64,000 nt of DNA from Candidatus Curtissbacteria bacterium. Lineage in GTDB: Bacteria; Patescibacteriota; Microgenomatia; Curtissbacterales; GWA2-41-24. Made by a program: the position numbers and the translations under genes. The DNA is taken from positions 472 through 64,471 of the forward strand of contig JACPEV010000008.1 of NCBI GenBank assembly GCA_016183325.1. Reading direction: 5' to 3'. The notes below the pieces were generated by a model. That model was not told the origin of the DNA. It ran no database searches and worked only from the letters and a program-made list of their open reading frames with translations. Positions within the stretch are counted from its first letter, which is position 1; each line of letters opens with the position of its first letter. This document shows, one piece after another, positions 12,817 through 62,335 of the stretch.

Positions 12817-13245
12817 TTAGATTGAAATAATGATTTCTTCTTCTTTTCTGTTGAATAATACCTTATGGCACTTGTCGAAAAAGCCATTTTGACCCAAAAG
12901 CGGAATTTGCTGTTGGTAGCTAAAATAGGCGTTTGTTTCGATTTTGTGGCCTTCTATAAAAATTCCGATGCCTTCATGAAGGAAGCTGTCAATCTGGATA
13001 TCGCCAATTCCTGCGATTTTGTGTTTTTTGCCCTTTGGAATATTAATTCCTAACTTTTCTCCAAGTGATGCTGGGAATAAATTGACGCTCGCTCCTGAAT
13101 CGACAAGTGCCAGAACATTGAACATCTGTCCTCTTTTGTAATTAATAACAACGTCGATCAACGGAATGGGAACGTAAATTACTTTTTCATTTTGCTGTCG
13201 TGGAGCTTGAAAATATCTAAATTTGTGAGCGGACATCAAGGACAA
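12817..13245 (-). CDS. retropepsin-like (clan AA) aspartic protease, cassette 1
   Basis: LALVDSGASVNLFP matches the D-S/T-G-A catalytic motif. A likely true start is the Met at 13236, whose ATG overlaps the upstream stop (TGATG). Confidence 0.6.
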   Translation of the reverse strand: MSLMSAHKFRYFQAPRQQNEKVIYVPIPLIDVVINYKRGQMFNVLALVDSGASVNLFPASLGEKLGINIPKGKKHKIAGIGDIQIDSFLHEGIGIFIEGHKIETNAYFSYQQQIPLLGQNGFFDKCHKVLFNRKEEEIIISI

Positions 13246-13430
13246 TAGGGCACTAGAGGGGGAACTGCCATAAAAATTACTTTTTCCCTATCAACTTTTT
13301 TTGATACTTCCTCAAGGCTTTTTCCGTGGGCAACTATTTTTGTCTTATTTTTATCCAGAGCTACCCACTGCTTTGCATATTTTTCTAATCCTTTAATTGG
13401 TTTCTGTTTCATAAACCTATTATACTCCAA
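13236..13430 (-). CDS. small partner protein of the retropepsin cassette (KYxxxWVAL…V-A-G motif)
   Basis: 64 aa; KYAKQWVALDKNKTKIVAHGKSLEE aligns with the 61746-61943 product (KYKGKWVALKDDEKTVVASGSTAKE). Translationally coupled to the protease. Confidence 0.5.
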   Translation of the reverse strand: MEYNRFMKQKPIKGLEKYAKQWVALDKNKTKIVAHGKSLEEVSKKVDREKVIFMAVPPLVPYCP

Positions 13431-13440
13431 TTTTCAAATG

Positions 13441-13549
13441 AACTACCACGACTTAACAGTCGTGGTATCCTCAGGCTACGCCTTCGGCGAGTACGTAATT
13501 GTTCAATTCACCCACGGGTAAAAACCCGTGGTACTTGCGAACAATTATA
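13441..13549 (-). repeat. structured three-hairpin element, copy B (inverted relative to copy A at 206-311)
   Basis: About 95% identical to the reverse complement of 206-311. It lies between the ftsZ stop and the cassette 1 start. Confidence 0.5.
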
Positions 13550-13615
13550 AATCCTGAATCCTTAACAGGTCGGAGTCGTTAGACTCCAGACAAGTCCAGG
13601 ATGACAAGAAGGTGG

Positions 13616-14695
13616 TTATCTAATTTGTCTGAGGAATGTGGGGATGTCGAATTCATCCTCGTCGATTGAGGTTGGAGTTTCTTCAGAAGGTTGAGCTGTC
13701 TCCCCATCTTGCTGAGGAGTCACCTGAACGAACTTTCGTCTGGTTTCATCAAAACCTGTGGCAATAACTGTGACTTTAACCTGGTCGATGAGCTTTTCGT
13801 CGATAGTGGCACCAAAGATAATTTGGGCATCGGGATCGGCTTGACTGGTGATGACTTTGGCAGCTTCGTCAACTTCACTCATGGTCATATCGCTACCGCC
13901 AGTGATGTTGAAAAGAATGCCTCTTGCGCCGTCGATTGACGAATCTAAAAGCGGTGAGGCAATAGAAGATCTGGCTGCAGTTGATGCTCGATTTTCACCA
14001 GAGGCGGTACCTACACCCATCAATGTTGTACCGGCACTGGTCATGATAGTCTTAACATCGGCAAAATCAACGTTGATTAAGCCCGGCATGACGATGATAT
14101 CTGAAATTCCCTGAACACCTTGAGAAAGAACAGAGTCGGCAAGTTTAAACGCCTCAAGGAGAGAAACGTTCTTATCGACAACTTCAAGTAATTTTTGATT
14201 GGGAATAACAATCAACGTGTCGACTTTGTCTTTAAGACTTACAATGCCATCATCGGCGACAACCATGCGGCGAGTACCTTCAAATCCAAAAGGTTTGGTG
14301 ACTACGGCAACAGAAAGAATACCAAGTTTTCTCGCCAGCTCGGCAATAACTGGACCAGCACCTGTCCCGGTACCTCCTCCGGCACCGTAAGTTAGAAAAA
14401 CCATGTCGGCACCAGTTATTACTTCTTTGATGCGCTCTAAAGATTCTTCTGCAGCTTTTTTGCCAATCTCAGGGTCGGCACCTGCCCCAAGACCCTTGGT
14501 CAGGCCATCGCCGATTTGAACTTTAGTTTGAGCTTGATTTGCCAAGAGATGTTGTTGATCAGTGTTAACAGCCACAAAATCTACACCTTGGATTTGAGCA
14601 TTGGCGATCATGGAGTTTAAAGCATTGCAGCCACCTCCACCAATGCCAAGAACTTTTATTTTGGCGAATCTATTGACGTCGGGTTTAATTAACAT
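13616..14695 (-). CDS. ftsZ: cell-division GTPase FtsZ
   Basis: GGGTGTG tubulin signature, NTDQQ, acidic C-terminal tail …DEDEFDIPTFLRQIR. Confidence 0.95.
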   Translation of the reverse strand: MLIKPDVNRFAKIKVLGIGGGGCNALNSMIANAQIQGVDFVAVNTDQQHLLANQAQTKVQIGDGLTKGLGAGADPEIGKKAAEESLERIKEVITGADMVFLTYGAGGGTGTGAGPVIAELARKLGILSVAVVTKPFGFEGTRRMVVADDGIVSLKDKVDTLIVIPNQKLLEVVDKNVSLLEAFKLADSVLSQGVQGISDIIVMPGLINVDFADVKTIMTSAGTTLMGVGTASGENRASTAARSSIASPLLDSSIDGARGILFNITGGSDMTMSEVDEAAKVITSQADPDAQIIFGATIDEKLIDQVKVTVIATGFDETRRKFVQVTPQQDGETAQPSEETPTSIDEDEFDIPTFLRQIR

Positions 14696-14758
14696 TGAAG
14701 CGGTGACAATTTAACATAGAGGCAGGTGATTTGCAAGCGTTTTTTGCGTAAGAGAAAT

Positions 14759-16836: not shown

Positions 16837-16882
16837 ATATTAAGTATAACTCTACTGGTTAATAGTTAACAGTGAATAGTTA

Positions 16883-17045: not shown

Positions 17046-17054
17046 CGTTAATGA

Positions 17055-33152: not shown

Positions 33153-33157
33153 AAGTT

Positions 33158-33268
33158 TGTATCTTCCCCTTACGGGCTTGGATGTGGCACCTTCTTTGAC
33201 TTTTTGAGACAAAGGGTTGCCAGACGGATCATTGGGCCAAGTCCCATACCGTCATTCTCGATACTTTG
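33158..33268 (-). ncRNA. SAM-I (S-box) riboswitch aptamer controlling metK
   Basis: The minus strand reads UAUCGAGAAUGACGG…GGGACUUGGCCCAAUGAUCCGUCUGGCAACC…AAGGUGCCACAUCCAAGC…GGGGAAGAUA. This matches the S-box core elements (GGGA-CUGGCCC-AUGA-CCC-GCAACC, AAGGUGC-AA-UCC, closing P1 UAUC/GAUA). The terminator follows. Confidence 0.7.
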
Positions 33269-40621: not shown

Positions 40622-40723
40622 ATTTGTGGCCTTTTCCAGTTCTTAGTATCTGCTGCAAAATACTTTTTGTCAATTTCCAACACCTAGTTTTGTTTCTAAT
40701 TTTTTCGCCAGTCCCCCTGTCTT

Positions 40724-40795
40724 GACTCTCTCCTGCCTTGCACTGTCACGCTCCCGTATCGTGGCAGTATCGTCCTCGAGGGTCTGGAAATCAAC
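40724..40795 (-). repeat. decayed copy of the glyS 3' end (left island boundary)
   Basis: gactctctcctgccttgcactgtcacgctcccgtatcgtggcagtatcgtcctcgagggtc is about 70% identical to glyS 3'-end sequence at 51913-51975 and 51024-51085. The cacg-tcccg-atcgtg palindromic core is retained. Confidence 0.45.
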
Positions 40796-44400: not shown

Positions 44401-45394
44401 CGCTAGTTTTTCCAAGTCCCGTATCAGCTGCCAAAAGCCTTGTATTATGCCTTACAAAGTCGTAACAAAATGTTCTCTGTTCAAATGAGGGGAATGGCCT
44501 GGTTTGGTCTTTGACTTGAATTTGGGATTTAAATTCTCCTTTCAGCGGGAAAGTGGCTATATCATAAAATCGTTCGTGAATTTTTTCCAAAAATTGTTTT
44601 TTATCGGGATCTGTGCATTGCTTGATCACCTCTTCAAATTGTTTCATTCCCTCTTGAAGCCCGGCGTCCGTAATACTTCTTGAAAGGCTTTGTTCCAAAT
44701 AATTTTGAACTAAGTTGTATTTAATTGCATATATATTTCTAAAAATTTTCTTGGGGACTCTGTCTATCATGTCAACGATATCCATGTCTCTTTGAGGCAT
44801 AGTTCCAGTAAGAAGTCCAATATAAGGTCTGATAAGAGCAGTGGTTACCCAGGCACGGAGTTCTTCAATTTTTTTGGCATCCGTGACATTCTCGAATAAT
44901 TCCAATGTCATGATTTGACCTACTACCTCTAGAGGCCAACCGGCATCGACAAGCTCTTTGACATTAATATTCTCTGCCAACTTTGTTTCTACGACCTTTT
45001 GCGCTTCTTCATCCTCATGAGTCCCTCGCTTTATATGTCCTTTTTCTACTAGTAAAAGCTGCAAGTCTTCATACAATTCTTTGCCATGTGCTTTAATTTC
45101 TGCTTCTGCTTGCAGGCGTTCCTCATCAGATTTGAGTTGAATTACCATATCATCTCGAGGGATAAAATTCCTGAGAAGGAAAAGGGGGTCTTTTTGTTGC
45201 GCGTATATTCCACCTTCAATAAGCTTTTTCGCATAGTAAAATTTATGTCTAAGACGTGTTGAAGATGCGTAATTAGCTTCAAAAGTGCTACTTCCTTGCC
45301 AGTTTAGAACCCGATCTTCAAAATCGGGTGGTAGGATTATTTCTCCTTGTGGAGCCTCGTTCAGTCTCTCAATCATTAGGACTGATTTTATCAA
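41423..45394 (-). CDS. large SF2 helicase fused to a class I SAM-dependent methyltransferase-like domain (N-terminal ~320-aa unknown domain, C-terminal ~250-aa unknown domain)
   Basis: Helicase motifs I ADTGLGKTS, III LTATP and VI QMVGRSQRQGQ. MTase motifs I ILSVGAGTLLL, II DDTYDFLDNAFVLH and the RVLKNSGYFSL block. The annotated start is TTG; the ATG at 45376 (MIERLNEAPQG) is likelier. Confidence 0.7.
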   Translation of the reverse strand: MIKSVLMIERLNEAPQGEIILPPDFEDRVLNWQGSSTFEANYASSTRLRHKFYYAKKLIEGGIYAQQKDPLFLLRNFIPRDDMVIQLKSDEERLQAEAEIKAHGKELYEDLQLLLVEKGHIKRGTHEDEEAQKVVETKLAENINVKELVDAGWPLEVVGQIMTLELFENVTDAKKIEELRAWVTTALIRPYIGLLTGTMPQRDMDIVDMIDRVPKKIFRNIYAIKYNLVQNYLEQSLSRSITDAGLQEGMKQFEEVIKQCTDPDKKQFLEKIHERFYDIATFPLKGEFKSQIQVKDQTRPFPSFEQRTFCYDFVRHNTRLLAADTGLGKTSAAYLAMENSDAARVLVFATAAGKETWEIESNVAFTNPDQVYIVKGSGELKNAANSGKKYIVISQELLEDTQSDSNLLPLLEETLIKSAKVDASIIDEIDNFNNYDAISSKALLHLIGKIRQNYQERTGNEDAPILGLTATPIRSKLANLNVPMSILYPSEYVPVHEFSTARRKTFSDAHLNRPDLVYMSLIGEKRMFRWEQATGVQEFRYTPFSIQASPFEEYLHQFIEDNIQTNPLNKIRLLEDALLNPLLTKVEIRRMAKDKIQEMDIDETLNILKLIVPKWKEFKGVDSPQKSEDFLSADRLVEIGMGDLVLSCFFSELLENGVDTLVEELTKDSSDADLAELRKFWMSRKLSTKYKTLKRLVTDSLTWRQSEDGRIVRDKVFIISPSRRQGRTGDVLQRAINQEDGSVTNLYTSYELDTINDFKLMTLLKSWVSGLCSPEDILMIDGTIGVGRPREAVISRWVNNPSSALMLVTLEATYQSRDYTLNALKDEQDREIVGVRKIFLGPPWHFQQLKQMVGRSQRQGQLVPVENLVLEVKDMVDQGKGEAVVYSYLLSRMALSGIVLHPDQQEFFDSKRLGNRIEIRSKDSLYLSTAFHNMTGAGAERTLEMFHTNEIDPQRIAVKFYDEGRDEYHITGYNADFVSHLIKTKSEEESQILSVGAGTLLLQRKLKRGIDNVDINPYILQVGWEKARIFGGTAKFGRADELESRDDTYDFLDNAFVLHYSSLSNKGSVKAEDSERTKILRESNRVLKNSGYFSLTLPERVLDDDKFRKFTAALEEHFGFKVDQEYSGRAIGISKLGTKKSLGWSILAQKVGEVDLKGLTLSDLELLTDSRAWLSIGPKANRRVRKSPGTDYPSPQLRLELDHFEIYNPNVTTTQKPEIEIRSVDTDKDVELILTGEPLIKRENSILDFLRGVSIQDFRDYRTNLIRPISRITGWDWPQAEEFCIRILQDLSVTDRMPKDRLNAFSYIIREARRQLISGNGRG

Positions 45395-45413
45395 ATTTAG
45401 CCTATAGTTTCAA
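45385..45413 (-). promoter_or_regulatory. promoter P2 for the helicase gene: TTGAAA-N17-TAAAAT, 8 nt before the ATG (near-leaderless)
   Basis: Minus strand reads TTGAAActataggctaaatttgaTAAAATcagtcctaATG. It is almost identical to P1 at 50852-50880. The shared upstream motif CTAACAAGTGCCTTA is at 45498-45512. Confidence 0.5.
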
Positions 45414-45529
45414 ATCTGAAAAGTGATGTCTGCTCTTCTGTTTGCAAAATCTCAAATTAATTTTACGGTCCATGCTGATCCTTTGCATGATATTTACCTA
45501 ACAAGTGCCTTAGAGAGCATTATTGATTT

Positions 45530-47524
45530 TCATGCCTCTAAAAGCTTTACTAGTTGTTCGTTTGCCTCATCAGGAGAAATTGGTTGTGCTTTATCTCGAT
45601 TATTTTGTTTTTCTATTATTTCAACTATTAGTTGAATCAGCTCAGGAGCGTAGTGCTCAATAGGATGTCCTCCCTGATCGAGGTAAATCTCAAACCATTC
45701 TTGATGATCTTTCCTAAATTCTTTCGCTATCTGATCAATTACTCTTGAATTTTTTTTACGTAAATGATCCATTATGCCTCCTCTTGTCATCCAACCTTCC
45801 GGTGCTCGGCCATATCGTGTGAGCTCTTTGATAATTAACTCTTTCAATTCTGGTGAGTAATGCTCACGAATTCTGCCGTTTGAATCTACATAAAACTGAT
45901 GCCACTCGGGATGATTTTCTTTAAATTTATCGGCTCTATTACCCACAATTAAAGTGCTTCTCTTAATTTCTTTTGCTAAAGCTTCTTTTGTTATCCAGCC
46001 ATCTGGTTGATTTTTAAAGTTTGCGACATGCTCGATAATTAATGCAACGAATTCTGGTGAGTAATAATTATTGGGATGACCAGTCCGACTCAGAAATGTT
46101 TTGAACCAATCCAGATGCTCTTTTTTATATTTTTCTGCTAACCTTTCAACAAATTTCGGCGATTTTTCAACCAGTTCTGCTAAGCGCGCATTTGGGACCC
46201 ATCCTTCAGGAACAATATCGTATTTTGTAAGTTCATTTGTTAAGAAGGATACGAATTCGGGTGAATAATGATCCCGAAGAAACCCATTTCTAGCAACATA
46301 ATTTTTGGCCGATTCCGGATGTTGATCTCCAATTTGTTTAATTAATCTTTCAATAGGCCTCCTGGTTTTTCCTAATCGTTTTGCCAATTCTGTAATCGTT
46401 ATCCACCCTTCAGGTGCTTCGGTACCACCCTTTAATTCTTCTTCGGAAAATTCTATACCCAAAGGACTAAATGCAGATTTGAGGATCTCAAGCCGTAAGT
46501 TTTCGAATGATGGGTGCTCGCGACGAGGATTTCCAAACATTCTGCTGAAGTTCTTTTTTGATCTAACTTTTTCCCTAACGAATTGCTTTGCTTCTTCAAT
46601 TCTTCCTGTAATGACTGTCCCGTCTTTATCTAAGAAGGTTTCTATAAAATCTGGAAATTCTTGCAAAAATATCTCTCTTACGGCTTCAAAAATTTCTTCT
46701 CTATCTCTAGTATGCCAAATCCTCGGGTGAGCAAAATCGCTGTTATTAAATTGTACTCCCCAGGGTTTAAATGCTTTTTTAATAGCAGTTATGTAGCTTC
46801 CCTGGAAATAAGGTACTGCACCTTTTTGAACGGGTGTTCCACCAATAATTTGCGCAAATTTAATCTGATTTCCAATTTTCTCTTTAATAAATTCTTTCGC
46901 CGTTTCTTGGAAATTACTTTTTATTTGTCCATCATCATCTCTTGGAAATAAATCATTAAATTCAGGAAAGTTTTCAAGAAATAATCCTTGAATGTTGCCA
47001 ATGCCTATTTGTTCATTCTCTTCGGTGGTTTTGTCTGGAAATTTCCAGCGAACTTGTCCTATTGCATCTTTTAAAATTATTGGCCTATTTTTATCGCCAT
47101 TTGGTGAAGTATCTTTTGCAATTTCATTTCCTGGTAGCTCAATTCCCCAAGGAGCGAAGGATTTTTTAAAAACAACTAGGTAAGAGCCTTCAAAATATGG
47201 GCAAGATCTCTTATCACAAGCAACTCCAAAAGACATATAAAATTGTCTATTTTTGAAGACGTGGCTAAGTATAAATTCTCTTGCTTGTTCTACCCTGTTA
47301 CCATCAACTTTACCATCCTGATCTCTAAGAAATTGTAAATTAAAATCTGGAAACTTTTCTAGAAAAAGCGCTTGCACATTTCTAATGCCCAGCCGCTCAT
47401 TTTCCTCCAAGGTGTTGCCAGGTAGATGCCAACGTATTCGGCCTCCTCTATCCCTAAGAACTGTTGGCTTAGATATAGGAGAATATTCTGATAGTGACTG
47501 AGGATTTTCTTCTTCTTTTATCAT
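45530..47524 (-). CDS. repeat-rich protein with shared C-terminal tail (…PISPDEANEQLVKLLEA); island gene 4
   Basis: 664 aa. Two N-terminal copies of a ~110-aa 'RDRGGRIRWxLPGN…FLExFPxFN' domain plus a degenerate third. Then four tandem ~68-aa 'PEGW-T…LA…R…HxEW…HYSPE' repeats that look HTH-like. Confidence 0.55.
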   Translation of the reverse strand: MIKEEENPQSLSEYSPISKPTVLRDRGGRIRWHLPGNTLEENERLGIRNVQALFLEKFPDFNLQFLRDQDGKVDGNRVEQAREFILSHVFKNRQFYMSFGVACDKRSCPYFEGSYLVVFKKSFAPWGIELPGNEIAKDTSPNGDKNRPIILKDAIGQVRWKFPDKTTEENEQIGIGNIQGLFLENFPEFNDLFPRDDDGQIKSNFQETAKEFIKEKIGNQIKFAQIIGGTPVQKGAVPYFQGSYITAIKKAFKPWGVQFNNSDFAHPRIWHTRDREEIFEAVREIFLQEFPDFIETFLDKDGTVITGRIEEAKQFVREKVRSKKNFSRMFGNPRREHPSFENLRLEILKSAFSPLGIEFSEEELKGGTEAPEGWITITELAKRLGKTRRPIERLIKQIGDQHPESAKNYVARNGFLRDHYSPEFVSFLTNELTKYDIVPEGWVPNARLAELVEKSPKFVERLAEKYKKEHLDWFKTFLSRTGHPNNYYSPEFVALIIEHVANFKNQPDGWITKEALAKEIKRSTLIVGNRADKFKENHPEWHQFYVDSNGRIREHYSPELKELIIKELTRYGRAPEGWMTRGGIMDHLRKKNSRVIDQIAKEFRKDHQEWFEIYLDQGGHPIEHYAPELIQLIVEIIEKQNNRDKAQPISPDEANEQLVKLLEA

Positions 47525-48871
47525 TCATTCCTCTAAAAACCTTCTTAATTGTTCGTTGGCTTCGTCGGGGGAGATTGAATCCTTTTCTATCTTTTCTTTT
47601 GGTGAATAGTTGCCCCCTTTGAGCGCGTCCATTATATCTTCTTGATTGTAAAGCTCAACAACTTTACCAGAAATGTCGCGACCGGTAATAACATTAATAT
47701 TTCTTCCACGAAGGTGGCGACGCATAGTTGCTGTTTGAAGCCCAAATGATTTTCGAAAATAAAATTGGGGCACCCATGTTTGATTGTTTTCATCGGTGTA
47801 GAGTCCCGTCACCTTATCCACTCGGGGTAAGTTTAAAAATTCGCTGATCTTTTCTGAAGCTTTCGATTCGTCGAAAAGGACTACTTCCGCACCAACCCTA
47901 CTTCTACCTTGTATCTGGGGGACATCAACAAGTAATGATGATAACGAAGTTCCACTAACCTGGAATCTGCTTCGAAGCACTCTTCTAGATACCCAACTGG
48001 AAGTACTGTTTTCTGTATACGAGCCTGTTTCGTTATTTACCCTAGGTAGCAGCAAAAAATTATTTATTTGACTTGTCACTTCGGGCACATTGTAGAGAAT
48101 GGTTTCGTGGCCAACCCCATCTCTGCCAGCTATAGATCGAACTCCTTGCATGAACTTTGATAGTTTTTCAGCACTAAGACCGTGATTAACTTTAAAGTAA
48201 TTAGCAGGGGCCCAACATTCTCCGTCTTCGTTTTGATATTGACCGATTGAACTATCAACTTGCGGGAGCGCAAAAAATTCGTTAATTCTTCTTGAAACTT
48301 CAGCTTCATTGTAGAGTCTAATTTCATGACCTTTAAGACCTACTCCTGCTCTTGATGGAACGCCGATCAAACGTTTAGACAAAGTTGGTCCGTTGATTTT
48401 AAAATTCTTTCTAAAAAAATAGGAGGAGGCCCAATTATTACCGTTTGCGTCCGTCCAGCGAGTTTCCTTATCAACCTTCGGTAAAGAAAGGTCGAGTCCC
48501 CAAGGATTGAAAGATTTTTCTAAAACGAAGTGATATGATCCTTGAAAATACGGGACTGTATTTTTCGAAAAAGGGGATTCTCCTGTTAGAGCAACAAACT
48601 CTTGTCTTTTACCTATTCTATCTAATATAAATTCTTCTGCTTGACCTCTTTTATCCTCTATAATTTTTTCATCTTCGCCCTTGGGGAAAAGTTCATTAAA
48701 CTCTGGATATCTTTCTAAGAAGATTGCTCGAATGTTTTTTATTCCAAGCATTAAGTTCTCTTCTTCAGAGTTGCCTGGAAGCGACCAGCGAATTCTGCCT
48801 CCTTTATCACGAAGAATTGACGGTACTTGGATTTCTTGATTTTGTGTTAGTAATGTTTCTTTTGCCATCAA
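47525..48871 (-). CDS. repeat-rich protein with shared C-terminal tail (…SISPDEANEQLRRFLEE); island gene 3
   Basis: 448 aa. One RDKGGRIRWSLPGN domain, then four ~70-aa 'W…YF-K-F…LS-L…GR-GVG-E…LYNE-EV…I-EFL-LPRV…TG-YT' repeats. The true start ATG overlaps the upstream stop (TGATG). Confidence 0.55.
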   Translation of the reverse strand: MMAKETLLTQNQEIQVPSILRDKGGRIRWSLPGNSEEENLMLGIKNIRAIFLERYPEFNELFPKGEDEKIIEDKRGQAEEFILDRIGKRQEFVALTGESPFSKNTVPYFQGSYHFVLEKSFNPWGLDLSLPKVDKETRWTDANGNNWASSYFFRKNFKINGPTLSKRLIGVPSRAGVGLKGHEIRLYNEAEVSRRINEFFALPQVDSSIGQYQNEDGECWAPANYFKVNHGLSAEKLSKFMQGVRSIAGRDGVGHETILYNVPEVTSQINNFLLLPRVNNETGSYTENSTSSWVSRRVLRSRFQVSGTSLSSLLVDVPQIQGRSRVGAEVVLFDESKASEKISEFLNLPRVDKVTGLYTDENNQTWVPQFYFRKSFGLQTATMRRHLRGRNINVITGRDISGKVVELYNQEDIMDALKGGNYSPKEKIEKDSISPDEANEQLRRFLEE

Positions 48872-49728
48872 TTCTCCAAAAGTCTTTTTAGCTGTTCGTT
48901 AGCTTCGTCGGGGGAAATAGTTGATTCTGCAGGTCTGTAAAGTCTTGTGTCTCCTTTGTGAAATATCCTGCGATCGATTAATTTTTGTTCTCCTTCTTGA
49001 TTAACTAAGAAAATTTCTAAAAATGTATTGCTTTTTTCATCGACTTTTGGTTGAAAAGCTAGCTCTTTTCCGTAAGACGTTCGTATTTCTTTATTATTTA
49101 ATACGACGGCTTTACCTCTAACCATTCCTATATGAAAGCTGTCTGTTCGAGTGAAATTCCACGTCCAAAATTCTTTCAGCATGTGTGGTTCTATCTCTTT
49201 TCTTCCACCGAGGTAATCTAAAAAAATCTGTCTTTCAAAACCATGCCAACTTTCTACTTTTAGGTTTTGAGCGTCAATCCTAAACGATTGAATTAGTTCA
49301 TTAAAATCTACTACATCCCTTAATCCTAATTCGTGGAAATCAATCCATTGATATAATTTATTTTCGTCTTCTCTAGGAAAAGCTAAGATTATTCCGCTGT
49401 TGCGGATAATTTTTTGCGATAATGGATTGAGGCTAAAGATTACTGTCCTTCCTTGAATTCTGCCACCTATGTAAAATCTTGTTCCGACTTTATTATCACC
49501 TCTGGCTTCTTCTATCAAAAACGGTGGAATTTCTTCAAAAGGAAATCTTCCTCTGAGAAAAGCGTGCAGAAAAGCTACGCCCTCCTCCTGGTCTACTGCG
49601 TATATGGGTGAAGGTTTCCATGGATCTGGCTCTACTTGCGAAGGATCAGACCTGTCTCCCAATTCCAAATCTATTATTTTAATGAATCGTTTACTATTGG
49701 GACTTTTTGGTTGCATCTCTGGATTCAT
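48868..49728 (-). CDS. hypothetical protein with shared C-terminal tail (…TISPDEANEQLKRLLEN); island gene 2
   Basis: 286 aa. The upstream gene's final GAGGAA (Glu-Glu) codons form the SD, and its TAA stop overlaps this ATG (TAATG). Confidence 0.5.
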   Translation of the reverse strand: MNPEMQPKSPNSKRFIKIIDLELGDRSDPSQVEPDPWKPSPIYAVDQEEGVAFLHAFLRGRFPFEEIPPFLIEEARGDNKVGTRFYIGGRIQGRTVIFSLNPLSQKIIRNSGIILAFPREDENKLYQWIDFHELGLRDVVDFNELIQSFRIDAQNLKVESWHGFERQIFLDYLGGRKEIEPHMLKEFWTWNFTRTDSFHIGMVRGKAVVLNNKEIRTSYGKELAFQPKVDEKSNTFLEIFLVNQEGEQKLIDRRIFHKGDTRLYRPAESTISPDEANEQLKRLLEN

Positions 49729-50843
49729 TATTCCTCCAAAAGTCTTCTTAACTGTTCATTGGCTTCGTCAGGGGAAATGATTACATCTACCGAATTTTTA
49801 TTTGTGTCACTAAGACCTAGCTTTGCTCTCAAAGCTCTAATACGACCTGGATAAGCTCGAATTGCACCCCATAGGTCATACCTGTTTTTTGCTTGCAATG
49901 CATTTCTTGTAAGTAATCCTTCCTGCTGGAAGAATTCCCAAGCCTCTTTTTCTATTACTTCTGAAGTCCAATATCCTTTCTTCCTTATTAGTCTAATATC
50001 AAGCCCTAGATCTCTTTTTAAGCCTGTCATTTTCCCAGGATAAAATTTACCAATAGCTGTTCTAAGATCGCCCCTTCCTTGCCTAGCTAATAAATTTGTT
50101 GTTAAATGTTCCTCTTCTCCTAAAAAAGCTAAAGCTGCTTTTCGGATTTCTTCTGGGGTCCAGTAATGATATGGCTTTGCAGATGGTCCTAAACCTAAAT
50201 CTTGTTTTAACTGCCTTATTCCACCTGGATAATGTCGTAGGATAGCATTAAGTAAGTCATTTCTATGGCCCTCGAAAAGCAATCGGGCGCTAATTTTTCC
50301 TTCTTGATCTAGAAACCCTTTGGACTCCTCGAAGATCATTTCCTTTGTCCAATAATTTCCAGGTTTTTTAATTATCTTAAGACCAAGATTTCTTCTGAGC
50401 CCCACCATTCCATCTGGATAATATTTAGCTACTGCAGCGACAAAGCTTGATAAGCCAGCTTTTACCAATGTTCGTTGTTTTAAGTCTGAGCCTTCTGTAT
50501 CCAATCTACGACCCTCGTGTTCTATATTGGTTAGCTCCCGCCAGAATCCGGATGGTCTTGATGATGAAGGTACGCCAAGATTCACTTTTAAACCTGAAAA
50601 ACCTCCAGGATAGTAATGAACAATACCATAAAGCAGATCAAACTTTCCTGCACGGCTCAAGTTAACTCTTGTAAGATCATTTCCTTGTTGAATAAATCCA
50701 GTTGCTTCTGCAAGAACAACCGCGCCTAATAATCCTTGATCTTCTAATAACCTCCAACGGATCCTACCTCTATCATCTCGCGGTATGTCAATAGATTGGA
50801 AATCTTCCTCGGTCTTAGTAGCAAAAACAGTTCTTTCAGCCAT
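49728..50843 (-). CDS. repeat-rich protein with shared C-terminal tail (…IISPDEANEQLRRLLEE); island gene 1
   Basis: 371 aa. N-terminal RDDRGRIRW motif, then about five ~68-aa 'L…AI…YPGG…L…LGL…YWT-EEI…F…EG-L' repeats. Confidence 0.55.
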   Translation of the reverse strand: MAERTVFATKTEEDFQSIDIPRDDRGRIRWRLLEDQGLLGAVVLAEATGFIQQGNDLTRVNLSRAGKFDLLYGIVHYYPGGFSGLKVNLGVPSSSRPSGFWRELTNIEHEGRRLDTEGSDLKQRTLVKAGLSSFVAAVAKYYPDGMVGLRRNLGLKIIKKPGNYWTKEMIFEESKGFLDQEGKISARLLFEGHRNDLLNAILRHYPGGIRQLKQDLGLGPSAKPYHYWTPEEIRKAALAFLGEEEHLTTNLLARQGRGDLRTAIGKFYPGKMTGLKRDLGLDIRLIRKKGYWTSEVIEKEAWEFFQQEGLLTRNALQAKNRYDLWGAIRAYPGRIRALRAKLGLSDTNKNSVDVIISPDEANEQLRRLLEE

Positions 50844-50880: not shown

Positions 50881-50973
50881 GTGGGCCCATGATATTATTA
50901 CTGCCTGTAGTTTATTAAACGAGTATATTACTCGCTTGATAGTTATCTAACAAGTGGCTTACTGAGTAGGCGG

Positions 50974-51140
50974 TTAATGATATATGGATAATTTTTGCGC
51001 AAGTTCTTTTTGGAGATTTTCGACCTTCACTCTTTCTTGTTTAGCCGTATCACGATCCCGAATCGTGACGGTGTCGTCTTCGAGTGTCGCAAAGTCTATG
51101 GTTATGCAGTAGGGTGTTCCGATTTCGTCCTGGGTGGAGC
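50974..51140 (-). pseudogene. displaced 3'-terminal fragment of glycine--tRNA ligase (att-like duplicate; right island boundary)
   Basis: The minus strand encodes …[52 protein letters not shown]. The intact glyS ends …[49 protein letters not shown]. Nucleotide identity is about 85% over ~110 nt. The fragment has no start codon. Confidence 0.65.
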
Positions 51141-51180: not shown

Positions 51181-51372
51181 ATGGGAATCATTGATCTAAG
51201 AAGAGTCTTGAAAAATCGTCGTTCCGGGTGGATCTCTATTTCGAAAGACTACAAAAGGGTTATTGCCAAAGACCAAACCTTAGGGGGTCTTGTCAAAAAA
51301 CTGCAAAGGCTTGGCAATCCCGAAGGATATCTTGTCAAGGCAGCGAACGATTATTCCAGATATGTGGGCTGA
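51181..51372 (+). CDS. small partner protein of the retropepsin cassette, copy 2 (divergent)
   Basis: 63 aa (…[19 protein letters not shown]…). It occupies the 3' part of the ORF-track frame 50995-51372. Its stop overlaps the next ATG (TGATG). Confidence 0.4.
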
Positions 51373-51899
51373 TGAAACCTGTTATTTTGCAGCCACCAAT
51401 AAAGATCTGGTATAAAACGCTTCCCGGATTTTCAAAAATCATTTGGCCAATACTTGATATCAAATTGTCTATAAATAGTTTCGTTCTTCCTCAACCTATC
51501 TTTTCGCTTGTAGATTCCGGTGCGAGTATTTCTATAATCCATCCACAGATAGCCGAGATATTAGGATTTGACCGAGAAAGATTAGGCAAATCGCGATCGT
51601 CAGGAAAATCAGCCAGCGGTGATTATAAATCTTGGATTTTACCGAATCTTGTTGAAGTAAATATTTATGGCCATTTGTTTAATTTTAGGTTCGAAGTATT
51701 AGATAATCCAAATCTTATGTGGCCATGTATTTTGGGAGAAGATTCAATCTTTCAAGTTGCCAAGGTTGATTTTTCAAAATTCAGAGGTTATTTTGAATTG
51801 AGGATTAGACTAAAAGAAGATAAATCTAGGAGTTTGGCCGAACTTGCTAAAAACACGTACGGTGCATGGAAAGAACCGGTTAGGAAAATTTCTTCATAA
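51372..51899 (+). CDS. retropepsin-like (clan AA) aspartic protease, cassette 2
   Basis: FSLVDSGASISIIHPQIAEILGFD. Start MKPVIL is coupled to the upstream stop. The ORF-track N-terminus (51228-) is probably not translated. Confidence 0.55.
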   Translation: MKPVILQPPIKIWYKTLPGFSKIIWPILDIKLSINSFVLPQPIFSLVDSGASISIIHPQIAEILGFDRERLGKSRSSGKSASGDYKSWILPNLVEVNIYGHLFNFRFEVLDNPNLMWPCILGEDSIFQVAKVDFSKFRGYFELRIRLKEDKSRSLAELAKNTYGAWKEPVRKISS

Positions 51900-53409
51900 G
51901 AATATTTGCAAGTGTGTCCACTTTTACTCTTTCCTGTTTGGCCGTGTCACGATCCCGGATCGTGACAGTGTCGTTTTCCAAAGTTTCGAAGTCGATGGTG
52001 ATGCAATAGGGTGTGCCGATTTCGTCTTGGGCGAAGTAGCGTTTGCCGATGTTGCCGCGATCGTCCCAAGCAACAGGTTGCAGTAAATGGTGAATGGATA
52101 ATTGTGAATAGAGCAAGCGGGCTTTTTTGACGAGATCGGGTTTATTGGCAAGAAGCGGGAAAACGGCGGCTTTAAAGGGGGCGAGTTTGGGGTGGAGTTT
52201 AAGAATTACTCTCTTTGCTATATCCCCCGAACCCGGTTTGGAGGATTTTTGCAAACCGGGTTCGTCTTTTGCTGGTTCCTCTGTATAAGCATCGATTAAG
52301 AAAAAAAGCGCGGCGCGATCGACTCCTCCCGAAGTTTCGATGATATATGGAAGGTATTTTTTATTTTTCGCAGGCTCAAAATAGGTCATATCGACGCCGG
52401 AATGTTTTTGATGCTGAGACAGATCCCAGTCTCCCCTATTGTGAATTCCTTCAAATTCTTTCCAGCCTCCGCCAGAGGCGGATAGATCGTATTCAATATC
52501 CCAGGCGTCTTTGGCGTAGTGAGCACGCTCGCCTTCTTCGTGCTGACGAAACCTAAGTTTGTCTTTTTTCATTCCGAGCTCCAAGTACCATTTCATGCGC
52601 TCGTTTTTCCAGTATTCGTACCATTTTTCGGATTCTTCCTTTTCTGGTTTGACATAATATTGAAGTTCCATTTGTTCAAATTCACGGGAGCGAAATGTAA
52701 AGTTACCGGGAGTAATTTCGTTTCGGAAGGCCTTGCCGATTTGGGCAATTCCGAAAGGAATTTGGACTCGAGTGGAATCGAGGATGTTTTTGAAATTGAC
52801 ATGGACACCTTGAGTGATTTCACCGCGAAGATAAACTTTTTGTTTGGCGTCTTCAACAACGCCGAGTTTGGCTTCAACAAGGAGATTGAATTTTTTAGGT
52901 TCTGTAAAATTGTGCTCTTTATCTTTGGTGGGATTTTCTACGATTTCTTTAAAATCATGCTTATTTTTACCATCCATGCAGTAAATGAACGGTAAAATTT
53001 CGCTTTGCTCTTGAGATAATGACCAAGAAGTTACATTTGTTGAGATCGAACTTGTCTTTGTAAAAACCATGTGCTTCAATTTCTCTTTTGCTTCTGTAAC
53101 ATTATCAGCCCTGAACCTCTTATGACAAATTTTGCATTCTACAAGTGGATCAGTAAACGCTTTGACATGACCGGAGGCTTCCCAGACTTTGGGATTCATG
53201 AGAATTGCAGTGTCGATGCCCACTACATCGTCCCTACCGTAAACCATCGACTGCCAAAAAGCCTTTTTGATGTTGTTTTTGAGCTCGACTCCGAGAGGAC
53301 CATAATCCCAAGTTCCCCCAAGTCCGCCGTAGATTTCAGAACCGGGATAAATAAAGCCACGACGCTTTGCGAGAGAAACAATTTTTTCTAAATTCGTAAT
53401 TTTATCCAC
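51880..53409 (-). CDS. glyQS: glycine--tRNA ligase (dimeric class II GlyQS type)
   Basis: 509 aa with class II motifs and an anticodon-binding C-terminus. Confidence 0.9.
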   Translation of the reverse strand: MDKITNLEKIVSLAKRRGFIYPGSEIYGGLGGTWDYGPLGVELKNNIKKAFWQSMVYGRDDVVGIDTAILMNPKVWEASGHVKAFTDPLVECKICHKRFRADNVTEAKEKLKHMVFTKTSSISTNVTSWSLSQEQSEILPFIYCMDGKNKHDFKEIVENPTKDKEHNFTEPKKFNLLVEAKLGVVEDAKQKVYLRGEITQGVHVNFKNILDSTRVQIPFGIAQIGKAFRNEITPGNFTFRSREFEQMELQYYVKPEKEESEKWYEYWKNERMKWYLELGMKKDKLRFRQHEEGERAHYAKDAWDIEYDLSASGGGWKEFEGIHNRGDWDLSQHQKHSGVDMTYFEPAKNKKYLPYIIETSGGVDRAALFFLIDAYTEEPAKDEPGLQKSSKPGSGDIAKRVILKLHPKLAPFKAAVFPLLANKPDLVKKARLLYSQLSIHHLLQPVAWDDRGNIGKRYFAQDEIGTPYCITIDFETLENDTVTIRDRDTAKQERVKVDTLANILMKKFS

Positions 53410-59137: not shown

Positions 59138-59245
59138 ATCTTTGGAATTTCTAATTTCTAATTTATCTAATTAACCTAAATTTGTTTGACTCTTGACTCA
59201 TTGGGAATTGTTTAGAAATTAGAATAATTAGACAAATTAGGTTAA

Positions 59246-60349
59246 TTACAAATACTGCTCTTTTTTCTCTTCTTTTAACTTTTCAATTATTTTTTTGACA
59301 TCATGAGTTCTGTCTTTTGTGCAAACAAGTAGAGCATCCTCTGTATCAACTACAATAAGACCTTCGAGGCCGATAGCTGCTATTATTTTTTTGTCCGTTG
59401 ATGAATAGATTAAACAATCTTTCAGATCAAGATCAACAACATTCCCCTGCAGAATATTTTCCCGGGGCTGTGAGGACATTTCTTCTTTTAATTCGTCCCA
59501 AGTCCCGACGTCTCTCCATCCAAGATCAGCTGAGATTACAACTTGATCTGTTCCTGTAAGATGAGAGTTGATGGCATAATCAATCGAATTTTTGGGAATT
59601 TTTTCGTATTCTTTTTGAATAACCGCCTGCTGCTGATGTGTCCCCCAAGCCTTCTGGATTTTCATCAAAGCCTCCCAACCCTCTTTGAAATGTTTTTCGT
59701 AAAGGTTCAGCATTTTTTGGGCACTCCAGACAGAATATCCAATATGCCAAAGGTATTCCCATGACTGGACAAATTTTTTGGCCGTCTTGTAATCGGGTTT
59801 TTCAATCTGGCTGACGAATTCAAAAATGGCTAGACCATCGTCGCTTTTAAGCATTTTCCCAACCTTCAAATAACCTAAGGCGATGCTGGGGAGAGTTGGG
59901 CGGACTCCGATTTCCACAAATTTGTCCATCTCCTTGACAGCTTTATCGGCAAGCCGTATAGCCTTTAAAAATTCCTGTTCGTTTCTAACTACATGATCGC
60001 TCCAAAGCCCCAGTACATTAGGATTATCAAATTTTTTATCTAGAACTGCGGCTGATAAGCCAACGGCGGCGGCTGTATCGCGCATTTGGGGCTCAATGAT
60101 GATATTCTCAAGGGGAATAGCTGGAGCTAGCTTAACAATCCATTGTACGTTATCACGCGTTGTAACCGGAAAGATATCATGCATTTGAAATTCAGGTTTA
60201 AGACGGTTGATCATCATTTCAAATGTAGATTCGCCTTCTATTAACGGCTGAAACTGCTTGGGTAAATTTCTGCGGCTCATTGGCCACATGCGAGTTCCGC
60301 TGCCGCCACAGAAAAGAGCAATTTTTAAATCTTTATGAGAATTTTGCAT
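59246..60349 (-). CDS. mannose-1-phosphate guanylyltransferase-like NDP-sugar pyrophosphorylase
   Basis: LFCGGSGTRMWPMSRRNLPKQF is the ManC-type signature. 367 aa. Confidence 0.7.
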   Translation of the reverse strand: MQNSHKDLKIALFCGGSGTRMWPMSRRNLPKQFQPLIEGESTFEMMINRLKPEFQMHDIFPVTTRDNVQWIVKLAPAIPLENIIIEPQMRDTAAAVGLSAAVLDKKFDNPNVLGLWSDHVVRNEQEFLKAIRLADKAVKEMDKFVEIGVRPTLPSIALGYLKVGKMLKSDDGLAIFEFVSQIEKPDYKTAKKFVQSWEYLWHIGYSVWSAQKMLNLYEKHFKEGWEALMKIQKAWGTHQQQAVIQKEYEKIPKNSIDYAINSHLTGTDQVVISADLGWRDVGTWDELKEEMSSQPRENILQGNVVDLDLKDCLIYSSTDKKIIAAIGLEGLIVVDTEDALLVCTKDRTHDVKKIIEKLKEEKKEQYL

Positions 60350-61637
60350 ACTTTGTGACTTGAAGTTTAAGTTTGCTGACGAACTCAGCTTGCGAAAATC
60401 TTAGAGTGTTATTTCTACAGGCTGTGCTATTCCATTTTACCTTACTTGCCCTAATAATTGCATCTTGAAGAGATATTGCGCTTTGGTCGCTGAAAAAAAG
60501 ACCTGTTTGCCCTTCAATTATGATTTCTCTAACTCCGCCTTTACTGTAAGCGATAACCGGCAGACCACAAGCTTGGGCCTCAACTGCGGCAATGCCAAAA
60601 TCTTCTTCCTGCGTTACGATTAACGCCTTGGCATTTTGATAAAGGTTGCGAAGTTGTTCCTTAGAAACAGCACCAAGAAACTCGATATCGTTTGTTATTG
60701 TTCGAGCTTGTCGAGAACTTACCTTATTCCCTTCTGTCATTCCGAACTTGTCTGATTTTATCGACCCGAATGGGTTTCGGAATCTTAGCGTAGATCCTGA
60801 AACGAGTTCAGGATGACGTGGCGTGGTATGGTAACTTCTCGACTCCCCTGCACCATACGGTGCAGGGTCGCTCAAAGAATAATTAAGTGAAGATGTATTC
60901 TTGGCTATATTTTGCAGCCTCCTCTCGTCCGGTCCGGTTCCCACAATTTTGAGGTTAACTTTAAGAACTTGGGCCGCTTTTATGGCAATTTCTACTTTTT
61001 TCCACTTCACCAGTCTCGTGACGATTAGAAAAAAATCATTTGACCGTTTACCTTTGGTCGCTTGGAAAAAATCTGTATCGACTGCGGGGTAAACCACTTC
61101 ACTATCTATACCGTAATGTTCTTTGACTAGTTGGGCGACATTTTTGGAATTGGCAATATAGCGATCTACTCTGGTTGAGGCAATTTTATCCCATTTCTCA
61201 AGCCATTTAAGAAGCGGAGAAAAAAGTATTCTTAAAATTTGGGGCAAATATTCCATTTTGGCTTTTTCACTCCAGAGGAATCTGGGAACGCTATTGATAT
61301 AGCAGATATGGAGAGTTTTAGGTTTGGTAATAATACCTTTGGCAAATCTGGTTGTTGATGAGATAACCAGATCAAAATCGTTGAAATTGAAACTCTCAAA
61401 GGCAATTGGGTAAAGCGGCAGGAGAAATTTATACCACTTTCGCGCAATAGCGTATTTTTGGAATATTTGCAGGAATGAGGGTCGGACCCTATTTCGGCTT
61501 ATTGTGGCGGGCAGTTTATTCCAATCAACAAGCGAGGTATAGATAGGAGCCTCGGACCAAATTTGAGCAATTGCGGCAAACAAATTCTCCGCTCCCCCAC
61601 TTTGGATGAAGTCATCGTGGACGAGGGCAATTTTCAT
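60333..61637 (-). CDS. GT4-family glycosyltransferase with an in-frame ~50-aa element-derived insertion
   Basis: N-terminal KIALVHDDF…GGAE and C-terminal EFLGAVSKEQL…EDFGIAAVEAQACGLPVIA are the GT4 cores. The insertion SDPAPYGAGESRSYHTTPRHPELVSGSTLRFRNPFGSIKSDKFGM lies between them. Confidence 0.75.
   Translation of the reverse strand: MKIALVHDDFIQSGGAENLFAAIAQIWSEAPIYTSLVDWNKLPATISRNRVRPSFLQIFQKYAIARKWYKFLLPLYPIAFESFNFNDFDLVISSTTRFAKGIITKPKTLHICYINSVPRFLWSEKAKMEYLPQILRILFSPLLKWLEKWDKIASTRVDRYIANSKNVAQLVKEHYGIDSEVVYPAVDTDFFQATKGKRSNDFFLIVTRLVKWKKVEIAIKAAQVLKVNLKIVGTGPDERRLQNIAKNTSSLNYSLSDPAPYGAGESRSYHTTPRHPELVSGSTLRFRNPFGSIKSDKFGMTEGNKVSSRQARTITNDIEFLGAVSKEQLRNLYQNAKALIVTQEEDFGIAAVEAQACGLPVIAYSKGGVREIIIEGQTGLFFSDQSAISLQDAIIRASKVKWNSTACRNNTLRFSQAEFVSKLKLQVTKYAKFS
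60736..60870. repeat. GC-rich hairpin element inserted in frame in the glycosyltransferase gene
   Basis: gtcattccgaa…ttcggaatc, cctgaaacgagttcagg and ctgcaccatacggtgcag. It is bounded by GTCATTCCG/AGGATGAC, as the 16952-17019 element is bounded by GTCATTCTG/CAGAATGAC. Confidence 0.5.
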
Positions 61638-61745
61638 TTGTAAAGATTATATATCAGCCTTGAACTTCGCTCAATCTGATATATGTCGCTCTGCGAAGCA
61701 GAGGAAGACATATCAGCGATGCTAAATTGGTGTATAATTGTTTTT

Positions 61746-61943
61746 ATGGCAATCGACTGGACCAAAATATTTCAAAAGTATAAAGGTAAGTGGGTGGCAC
61801 TAAAAGACGATGAAAAGACTGTTGTAGCTAGTGGCAGCACTGCAAAAGAAGCTTGGGACAGGGCACAAAGCAAAGGTTTTAAGAAACCAATTCTAAGTCG
61901 TATGCCCACCAAACTCATTCCCTATGTTGGCTTCGGGGTATGA
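61746..61943 (+). CDS. small partner protein of the retropepsin cassette, copy 3
   Basis: MAIDWTKIFQKYKGKWVALKDDEKTVVASGSTAKEAW…; 4-nt overlap (ATGA) with the protease gene. Alternative starts lie upstream at 61683 and 61719. Confidence 0.5.
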   Translation: MAIDWTKIFQKYKGKWVALKDDEKTVVASGSTAKEAWDRAQSKGFKKPILSRMPTKLIPYVGFGV

Positions 61944-62335
61944 AATTTCGCTATAAGAAATACGGCCCTCAAGTTCTGCGTCCAGTTATTCCAATCGAAG
62001 TTATCTATGAAAGTATAGCTGTACCATATGAAGTTCTAGTTGATTCGGGCGCAGATTCTAACATTTTTGATGCTCAAATTGCTCAGATTTTAGGCTTAGA
62101 TTTACTTCTAGGGAAGCATGCTGAAGTTTCTGGAATCACTGGAGTCGAAGAATCTATGTATATTCACAATCTCGATCTATTGGTTGGTGGTCATTTATTT
62201 AAGAATGTGGAGGTTGGTTTTCTTAAACATATGGGGCATCTTGGTTACGGTGTCGTTGGGCAAAAAGGCTTCTTTGATTTATTCGTGGTGAAATTTGACT
62301 TAAAGAAAGAAATTATTGAATTAAAGCCTCGGTAA
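61940..62335 (+). CDS. retropepsin-like (clan AA) aspartic protease, cassette 3
   Basis: EVLVDSGADSNIFDAQIAQILGLD. 131 aa. Confidence 0.6.
   Translation: MKFRYKKYGPQVLRPVIPIEVIYESIAVPYEVLVDSGADSNIFDAQIAQILGLDLLLGKHAEVSGITGVEESMYIHNLDLLVGGHLFKNVEVGFLKHMGHLGYGVVGQKGFFDLFVVKFDLKKEIIELKPR

Follow-up and report, generated by a model that had tools for sequence, protein, structure and literature searches.

Bacteria of the Candidate Phyla Radiation (CPR, or Patescibacteria) are generally regarded as genomically small and streamlined, and as poor in mobile and defense functions. In the ImmR/ImmA and Xre-COG2856 systems, which the locus described here resembles, a small regulator or substrate is paired with its cognate protease on mobile DNA; these proteases are metalloproteases, and their partners are helix-turn-helix (HTH) repressors. 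To our knowledge, and with literature searches empty on this point, a clan-AA aspartic protease (retropepsin) is not a described class of toxin. The bacterial retropepsin RimB works with partner proteins from its own operon in RimK/RpsF processing (PMC11957791). We analyzed a 64,000-nt stretch of DNA from a Candidatus Curtissbacteria bacterium (GenBank assembly GCA_016183325.1, contig JACPEV010000008.1, forward-strand positions 472 to 64,471; hereafter termed the window) that carries three copies, c1, c2 and c3, of a two-gene cassette in which a small protein of family DUF5678 is coupled to a retropepsin-like aspartic protease. The cassettes form a real, mobile, toxin-antitoxin (TA)-like family located at insertion junctions beside essential genes; their function is predicted. 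Literature searches revealed nothing on DUF5678 in such a context, nor any link between retropepsins and antitoxins.

The cassettes span 12817-13412 on the minus strand (c1), and 51181-51899 (c2) and 61746-62335 (c3) on the plus strand (Table 1). The first-pass annotation of the window, made from the sequence alone, had placed three homologous gene pairs here, each with the stop codon of the small gene overlapping the ATG of the larger one and with a clan-AA catalytic motif (LVDSGAS or LVDSGAD) in the larger protein. Positions of open reading frames (ORFs), profile matches and the shared LVDSGA confirmed this description in all three copies. The small-protein peptides quoted at that stage were real, but their listing order was actually c1, c3, c2. 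The small proteins of c1 and c3 matched Pfam DUF5678 (PF18929) above its gathering cut-off of 23.2 bits (30.1 bits, E 4e-7, and 41.1 bits, E 1.5e-10, respectively). That of c2 had no Pfam match, and aligned over its full length with the DUF5678 profile in hhalign (94.8%, E 5e-8). All three proteases matched Asp_protease_2 or gag-asp_proteas. Only the c3 protease scored above a curated cut-off (28.0 bits vs. 24.3 for Asp_protease_2); the c1 (20.7 bits) and c2 (22.9-26.1 bits) proteases were slightly under their respective cut-offs, and matches to NCBIfam TIGR03698 and TIGR02281 were far under cut-off. Each protease has LVDSGA(S/D) and, later in the chain, a hydrophobic-hydrophobic-Gly motif. 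NCBI protein HYU92_02665, from Candidatus Curtissbacteria, has exactly the sequence of the c1 protease (100% identity). Pairwise identity among the three copies was 17-31%, indicating that they are old paralogues. The ATG of c1 lies 6 nt after an extended -10 sequence (TGnTATAAT), which would imply a leaderless or near-leaderless mRNA.

A search for further copies and their neighbors, as proposed in the first-pass annotation, extended the pairing far beyond the window. The c3 protease had 629 relatives in the protein collection, almost all from CPR bacteria where the source organism was named. When one genome per species was scanned, 80 protease loci were obtained (41-96% identity); by record title these are mostly from Patescibacteria groups, and a few titles name other taxa. 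The DUF5678 gene was immediately upstream of the protease gene in 80 of 80 loci. Some overlap between the two genes was present in 65 of 77 pairs (ATGA in 53), and [LIV][VIL]DSGA was kept in at least 72 of the 80 protease homologues. Most c3-type inserts share the layout TGnTAtAaT followed by ATG. The DUF5678 family comprises ~1,170 clusters at 50% identity, nearly all of them free-standing proteins of 50-100 aa. Multiple copies are not restricted to the three in these 64 kb; two lie within 3-4 kb of each other in loci L005/L006 and in L025. DUF5678 and a single-domain retropepsin-like protease thus form one fixed, self-contained expression unit of ~600-700 nt, and this cassette family is widespread in Patescibacteria/CPR.

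The AlphaFold2 model of the c3 protease had a predicted local distance difference test score (pLDDT) of 90 and a retropepsin beta-barrel fold. Its top Foldseek matches in PDB were Rickettsia APRc, HIV/SIV protease and Ddi1 (probability 1.00, TM-score up to 0.70). The model of the c3 DUF5678 protein (pLDDT 88) consists of a small helix-strand-strand-helix-strand domain and a flexible conserved C-terminal tail (PIL..MP...PYVG); in a structure search it was similar to no solved fold. The DUF5678 protein is basic, with an isoelectric point (pI) of about 10. In one lineage (P0260) the two proteins are naturally fused through a TGA-to-TGG read-through, and this fusion is the sole hint that they may be physically linked.

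To evaluate mobility, we compared the cassettes with pseudo-cassettes set elsewhere within the same loci. Locus-specific flanking direct repeats were found at 21 of 74 cassettes, as opposed to 5 of 307 pseudo-cassettes (Fisher p = 3e-12). The earlier description of the pair as an insertion-associated, multicopy module therefore holds beyond this window, and many of the 80 loci are repeat-bracketed. The repeats are 16-169 nt long with 75-100% identity. From the end of the left copy to the DUF5678 ATG there are 1-160 nt, and the right copy begins between 12 nt before and about 113 nt after the protease stop; the 605-785 nt between the two copies contain the TGnTAtAaT box, the two genes and little more. 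The repeats are duplicated termini of the adjoining gene. They correspond to the start region of the downstream gene (L022, L042, L046, L065, L079, L084), the stop region of the upstream gene (L056, L063, L073), the stop region of a convergent gene (L014, L035 and L059, as well as window copy c2) or terminator-like hairpins (L051, L076). Because one repeat boundary is usually a few bases from a start or stop codon, the adjoining gene stays intact. In L084 the cassette splits a glyS-peptidase adjacency that is kept in other genomes. The cassette spreads as a bare unit that brings along no recombinase, and its landing points are the termini of other genes.

No terminal inverted repeats or fixed ends were seen at the inspected inserts, and no transposase was present inside the insert. 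The imprecise ends, the lack of terminal inverted repeats and the variable repeat length make a classical transposase unlikely, and on these grounds, together with the missing transposase gene, a transposon or insertion sequence reading of the cassette was rejected. Since the repeats are locus-specific, a single att site cannot account for the c3-type insertions. Two routes to the duplications remain: staggered-break duplication, or Campbell-type or one-sided homologous insertion of DNA that already bore the terminus of the neighboring gene.

The same scars were observed around inserts that lack the pair, namely a gene for a 112-aa membrane protein (L084 5137-5709), a PaaX-like gene (L069 12684-13450) and an islet led by BrnT/BrnA (L019 1762-4462). 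The termini duplicated around these inserts are the 5′ end of glyS and, from a convergent gene that resembles cmk, the 3′ end. These observations suggest a general CPR mode of gene gain via duplicated gene termini. Given that other small inserts have the same scars, the insertion process would belong to the host, with the cassette as a very frequent passenger.

Two of the three window copies had been placed, in the first-pass annotation, exactly at junctions marked by relics of the glyS and ftsZ 3′ ends. This was correct for c2, which lies between the real glyS 3′ end and a relic of it, but the ftsZ relic nearest to c1 is 1.7 kb past the protease gene. At c2, the glyS 3′-end segment 51917-52031 is repeated at 51020-51134 (83% over 115 nt, E 8e-30). 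The c2 protease gene and glyS, which are on opposite strands, overlap by 20 nt at their 3′ ends. The adjacent relic keeps an open frame for the final ~52 residues of glycyl-tRNA synthetase (GlyRS). A second relic, absent from the first-pass annotation, lies 11 kb from glyS, indicating that the glyS end took at least two insertions. Simple in-situ target duplication was considered for c2 and not adopted. Both glyS tails resemble natural GlyRS tails, and the tails differ from each other more than the rest of the repeat does. The arrangement may stem from staggered-cut duplication or from Campbell-type or one-sided homologous insertion. Neither a cassette nor a glyS relic was found downstream of glyS in any of 80 related glyS loci (52-72% identity), which include about a dozen syntenic Curtissbacteria, and an exact look-up of the glyS protein gave no match. 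Since the closest glyS relatives in the metagenome set are just 72% identical, this comparison indicates absence of the cassette rather than a precise empty site.

The part of glyS that encodes VTIRDRD contains a perfect 10-1-10 palindrome (GTCACGATCC-G-GGATCGTGAC; 51945-51967, minus strand). Each of the three glyS ends in the window has it, in decaying form, and only 2-8 of the 10 pairs are present in other glyS genes. The palindrome is partly forced by the VTIRDRD codons, and was considered as a possible recombination core. The two glyS relics bracket a ~10-kb block of six large genes (40879-50843). Three of the six were scanned against Pfam (40879-41487, 47525-48871 and 49728-50843), with no match. 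Four consecutive paralogues in this block (664, 448, 286 and 371 aa; 45530-50843, minus strand) have their C-terminal ~17 codons in common (...SPDEANEQLRRLLEE; repeats at 45528, 47523, 48866 and 49726). Together with a 1323-aa gene they fill the block, and the two paralogues scanned had no Pfam family.

The c1 cassette begins 204 nt past the real ftsZ stop codon, with a 114-nt repeat in between. An ftsZ-end-like element of ~110 nt consists of a hairpin, TTTGAACCTAAAWAKGRTAGA and a copy of the last ~13 ftsZ codons, and ends at a stop codon. Its core, AGGAAT-CCCCAC-ATTCCT, is partly palindromic, with 6-nt inverted arms (AGGAAT/ATTCCT) and a 6-nt spacer. The window has four ftsZ-end sites on the minus strand, the real ftsZ end at 13642 and relics at 11068, 9261 and 6316; the three relics were not listed in the first-pass annotation. 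Each directly precedes a two-gene module: c1, VapBC, HepT-MNT and HicAB, respectively. The segments that follow the sites contain c1 with a hydrolase gene and RidA, VapBC with two genes, HepT-MNT with three genes, and a stretch that starts with HicAB. From this arrangement we read the region as an apparent integron-like cassette array anchored in the stop region of ftsZ.

Comparison with other genomes supported the role of the site. Cassettes of c1 type were found in Curtissbacteria only. They are immediately after ftsZ in L172, L173, L177, L178, L184 and L185, whereas in L174 and L179-L183 it is a conserved ftsZ-end-like element that they immediately follow; L175/L176 have one intervening gene. 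The junction from relic site 1 to VapB in the window has the same sequence as the junction from real ftsZ to VapB in L175, and the ftsZ-end-to-c1 junction is identical behind real ftsZ (L173, L177) and behind a relic (L174). L173 and L174 are 99.7% identical from the CCCCAC core on and unrelated upstream. L172 and L173 (99.2-99.7% identity) differ by one replaced segment, both ends of which are just after CCCAC. Other strain breakpoints in the ftsZ island were not at recognizable sites. Related ftsZ arrays are rich in TA and restriction-modification genes, and cassette order varies among genomes. Exchange within the array could be due either to an unlinked site-specific recombinase or to recombination between the repeated sites; the repeated switch point at the core favors a recombinase. 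Pfam scans of 30 window ORFs, including ORFs of 270-420 aa, revealed no recombinase or integrase.

The 114-nt repeat between ftsZ and c1 has an inverted copy near the start of the window, and the two window copies enclose the entire variable region from cutA to ftsZ. A further copy is present in L009 (752-863); identities among the copies are 96% and 91%. The repeat has a very stable predicted fold (-53 kcal/mol, z -6.6), gave no Rfam match, and is not in the ftsZ-c1 junction of L172/L173/L177. It is probably an element resembling a miniature inverted-repeat transposable element (MITE) or an unknown small RNA. Three independent Logan assemblies with identical FtsZ (L089-L091) all stop ~50 nt past the ftsZ stop codon, which fits repeat or strain heterogeneity that begins exactly at the ftsZ-end junction.

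The c3 cassette has no flanking repeat. When it was compared with L009, from another Curtissbacteria genome, its ORFs showed 95-98% DNA identity with differences mostly at third codon positions, whereas the flanks showed 67-83%. The confinement of high identity to the c3 ORFs indicates recent exchange of the cassette alone. A basic ORF of 39 codons had been annotated after c3 at 62329-62448; that frame was wrong, and the correct ORF is the 41-aa one listed in Table 1. In several lineages, c3-type cassettes are immediately followed by a small basic ORF with the motif CGLCKPxKKWK, whose orientation varies; instances are 62313-62438 (minus strand) in the window, L001-L011, L081 8459-8569 and L032 8423-8512. 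Neither Pfam nor PHROG has a family that the window ORF matched. Such an ORF may represent a third part of the module, or a small gene unrelated to it.

In the glycosyltransferase gene near c3 (60333-61637, minus strand) we observed an in-frame insertion of ~190 nt (~62 aa, ...HPELVSGS...) at 60692-60887. The insertion is not present in orthologues of 372-379 aa. It has 17-nt inverted repeats (60710-60726/60827-60843) and an internal hairpin, and a weak 40-nt match to it is located at 62483-62522. It looks like a small mobile element tolerated within a coding gene. Elsewhere in the window, an ordinary SAM-I (S-adenosylmethionine) riboswitch at 33156-33267 (minus strand) is upstream of the S-adenosylmethionine synthetase gene (32018-33121).

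Table 1. Positions of the three cassettes, the ftsZ-end sites with their modules, and the repeat copies in the window. Strand is given in parentheses.
Feature	Position (strand)	Description	Neighbor or basis
c1 DUF5678 partner	13236..13412 (-)	58 aa from the likely start, ATG at 13412; mechanical ORF extends to TTG at 13430	PF18929, -10 box spacing, orthologues of 58 aa
c1 retropepsin-like aspartic protease	12817..13236 (-)	139 aa, LVDSGAS	ATG overlaps partner TGA by 1 nt (TGATG)
c1 extended -10 promoter-like box, TGGAGTATAAT	13419..13429 (-)	6 nt before ATG	Putative, from sequence reading
c2 DUF5678-like partner	51181..51372 (+)	63 aa, divergent	hhalign to DUF5678 profile
c2 retropepsin-like protease	51372..51899 (+)	175 aa, LVDSGAS, C-terminal extension of ~45 aa	TGATG overlap with partner
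c3 DUF5678 partner	61746..61943 (+)	65 aa	PF18929; AlphaFold2 pLDDT 88
c3 retropepsin-like protease	61940..62335 (+)	131 aa, LVDSGAD	ATGA overlap with partner; Asp_protease_2
Small basic ORF, MVKRKSTCGLCKPDKKWKQ...	62313..62438 (-)	41 aa, convergent with c3	Kept beside c3-type cassettes
ftsZ 3′ end, primary site	13616..13660 (-)	Codons ...EFDIPTFLRQIR and stop, core CCCCAC-ATTCCT	c1 next
ftsZ-end-like site 1	11042..11150 (-)	Hairpin, TTTGAACCTAAATAGGATAGA, AGGAAT-CCCCAC-ATTCCT...TAA	VapBC directly next
ftsZ-end-like site 2	9235..9340 (-)		Convergent HepT-MNT directly next
ftsZ-end-like site 3	6290..6350 (-)	Degenerate	Convergent HicAB directly next
VapB (Phd-like)-VapC (PIN)	10330..10992 (-)	First genes after site 1	Pfam PIN 5.9e-10, PhdYeFM weak
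MNT (nucleotidyltransferase)-HepT	8601..9228 (+)	By site 2	NTP_transf_2 2e-17, HepT-like 8e-33
HicB-like/HicA	5755..6288 (+)	By site 3	HicA_toxin 1e-10; HicB from position only
114-nt structured repeat	13436..13549 (-)	MITE-like; inverted copy at 205-318	Between ftsZ and c1
Right repeat copy, glyS 3′ coding segment	51917..52031 (-)		
glyS 3′-end relic 1, left repeat copy	50972..51134 (-)	Open frame ending ...KLSIYH and stop	
glyS 3′-end relic 2, DFQTLEDDTATIRERDSARQERVK... to stop	~40670..40790 (-)	11 kb from glyS	Not in the first-pass annotation

We tentatively favor the view that the DUF5678-retropepsin cassette is a TA-like, or addiction, module. This reading is based on the architecture of the pair, its own promoter, its copy number and mobility, and the way in which it and classical TA pairs replace one another behind the ftsZ-end site. 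In such a module the protease, as a homodimer like other retropepsins, would be the effector. DUF5678 would be made first and in excess through translational coupling, and would bind and restrain the protease. The contact would most likely be made by the conserved flexible C-terminal tail, which may dock in the substrate cleft and act there either as a pseudo-substrate or as a substrate that is cleaved slowly. Loss of the cassette or depletion of DUF5678 would then free the protease to cut cellular targets. An addictive cassette would explain both the persistence at fixed sites and the success as an insert, and would help to stabilize variable arrays. A broader proposal, which we regard as quite possible, is that the ftsZ end is an integron-like platform with its primary site in the last ~13 ftsZ codons (the C-terminal peptide) and a recombinase encoded elsewhere, and that the DUF5678-retropepsin pair is both the near-constant first cassette and addiction module of this platform and among the most successful passengers of a CPR-wide, terminus-duplicating gene gain.

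Several findings weigh against a TA-like module. The first-pass annotation had proposed a comparison of the partner with antitoxin and DNA-binding folds, and none was detectable in DUF5678; ribbon-helix-helix (RHH), HTH, AbrB and Phd folds were not seen. Conservation of the pair exceeds what is usual for classical TA pairs. Proteins of c3 type are 60-89% identical across CPR groups and are often more conserved than GlyRS of the same genomes; conservation equal to or above that of GlyRS fits a retained function. The neighbors of c3-type cassettes, judged from their translations, look mostly like housekeeping genes and not like defense islands. PADLOC gave no match for the DUF5678 partners or the c2 protease, and in no cassette were all required components matched. 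RimB, among the characterized bacterial retropepsins, is a regulatory enzyme and not a toxin (PMC11957791). Position is also fixed in part. Lineages with a c1-type cassette right after ftsZ have FtsZ proteins that are 80-86% identical, and c3 keeps its place beside a DUF4012-Bac_transf-ManC-GT1 operon, with RecO nearby, across other Curtissbacteria. The preference for a selfish module over a housekeeping pair in the first-pass annotation is therefore borne out in regard to mobility, coupling and association with insertions, but not in regard to c1 and c3, which show fixed position and strong conservation. That annotation had also held that a conserved context lacking any boundary association would speak against a selfish module. 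No such context was found, because the boundary site is itself conserved within the conserved contexts. Finally, with the c3 protease as tblastn query no match was obtained among 50,697 phage and 72,556 plasmid records, PHROGs gave no match, and IMG/VR scans revealed neither the cassette nor the ftsZ-end site. On these searches, a phage or plasmid origin of the cassette was rejected.

Fixed position and conservation are what would be expected if the pair had a regulatory or housekeeping role, with a protease that processes specific cell proteins, as RimB does with RimK/RpsF, and a partner dedicated to it as activator, adaptor or substrate; it would be inherited mainly vertically, with paralogues that act on different substrates and with scars that reflect general CPR gene gain. 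Consistent with this explanation, in all Curtissbacteria lineages examined c1 closes the dcw cluster, right behind ftsZ, and diverges roughly with FtsZ, and c3 is syntenic with the RecO-to-GT1 block described above. Purifying selection is strong, the catalytic motif is conserved, and duplicated gene termini likewise flank inserts other than the pair. The bacterial retropepsins known so far are not toxins, and they depend on partner proteins (PMC11957791). However, a housekeeping pair would not be expected as a bare, promoter-carrying 0.6-kb insert with fresh duplications at dozens of unrelated loci. Neither cassette-only allelic exchange nor interchange with VapBC, HicAB and HepT-MNT behind the same recombination site would be expected of it, and c2 is absent at all 80 related glyS loci. 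We consider this explanation rather unlikely.

Cassette-only allelic exchange fits frequency-dependent selection, as would act on an anti-phage abortive-infection or other defense module. In such a module DUF5678 would be removed or overridden on a phage cue, which would leave the protease to destroy proteins of the host or the phage. The PADLOC candidate defense families PDC-M52B (3.6e-6) and PDC-M08B (1.1e-5) were matched by cassette proteases (c1 and c3), and restriction-modification and TA genes share the arrays downstream of ftsZ. These PADLOC matches, however, are weak and cover only part of the protease, there is none for the partner, and c3-type cassettes are usually solitary among genes that, from their translations, seem to be housekeeping; phage-host systems of CPR bacteria are also not tractable. 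We consider a defense module less probable still than a housekeeping pair. That the pair drives its own movement, as a minimal autonomous mobile element with a new insertion chemistry, is very improbable: repeat-bounded inserts do hold just the two genes, DUF5678 is basic and no recombinase gene was found among the scanned window ORFs, but the protease has a standard retropepsin fold with its catalytic motif, and the imprecise insert ends, the variable repeats and the similar insertion of unrelated genes suggest that the mechanism is supplied by the host or in trans.

Should the protease be a toxin held in check, as the TA-like reading supposes, a retropepsin-type protease would be added to the known TA and abortive-infection effectors, and DUF5678 would gain a function. 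Whatever its function, a compact and very widespread two-gene cassette moves between loci and genomes despite the streamlining of CPR genomes. We know of no earlier description of either the cassette array at the ftsZ end or the duplicated gene termini. The insertion scars at glyS, ftsZ and other gene termini, together with the palindromic site at the ftsZ stop, indicate where and how uncultured bacteria take up genes, and the site can be used in searches for the recombinase.

Comparison with described systems places the cassette among several of them. In contrast to the repressors of ImmR/ImmA and Xre-COG2856, nothing points to DNA binding by DUF5678. The B components of PADLOC PDC-M08 and PDC-M52 are distantly similar to the proteases of c1 and c3, and no A component matches DUF5678; these similarities are not enough to call the cassettes members of either family. 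The best structural and sequence matches of the proteases are Rickettsia APRc, Pseudomonas RimB and the RVP domain of eukaryotic Ddi1, at ~20% sequence identity. They share the single-domain retropepsin fold and the D-S/T-G-A and hydrophobic-hydrophobic-Gly motifs. The cassette protease differs in that it has no membrane anchor such as that of APRc and no rimK/rimA neighbors, and in that it has a fixed DUF5678 partner and belongs to a mobile unit.

The ftsZ-end array resembles integrons, 3′-end-targeting elements and arrays of integrative mobile elements exploiting Xer (IMEX) at dif sites, in that serial cassettes, each bounded by a related, partly palindromic site, extend from a primary site at the end of a conserved gene. 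As in large chromosomal integrons, TA cassettes are present, and strain-level swaps break at the site. The array differs from integrons in that no integrase gene is beside it (the site adjoins ftsZ and c1) or among the scanned window ORFs, in that the site is inside the codons for the FtsZ C-terminal peptide, and in that some strain breakpoints are not at sites.

The closest parallel is with type II TA modules such as VapBC, HicAB and HepT-MNT. Like these, the cassette has a small upstream gene translationally coupled to an enzyme gene, its own promoter, and a patchy, multicopy, horizontally mobile distribution; the two genes are adjacent, co-directional and overlapping, and they stand behind the ftsZ-end site just where bona fide TA pairs do. 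The cassette differs in that the partner has no RHH, HTH, AbrB or Phd fold, in that toxicity and neutralization are predictions only, and in that conservation and synteny are above those of usual TA loci. The DUF5678-retropepsin cassette is therefore best filed as a TA-like, mobile two-gene unit with an unusual effector.

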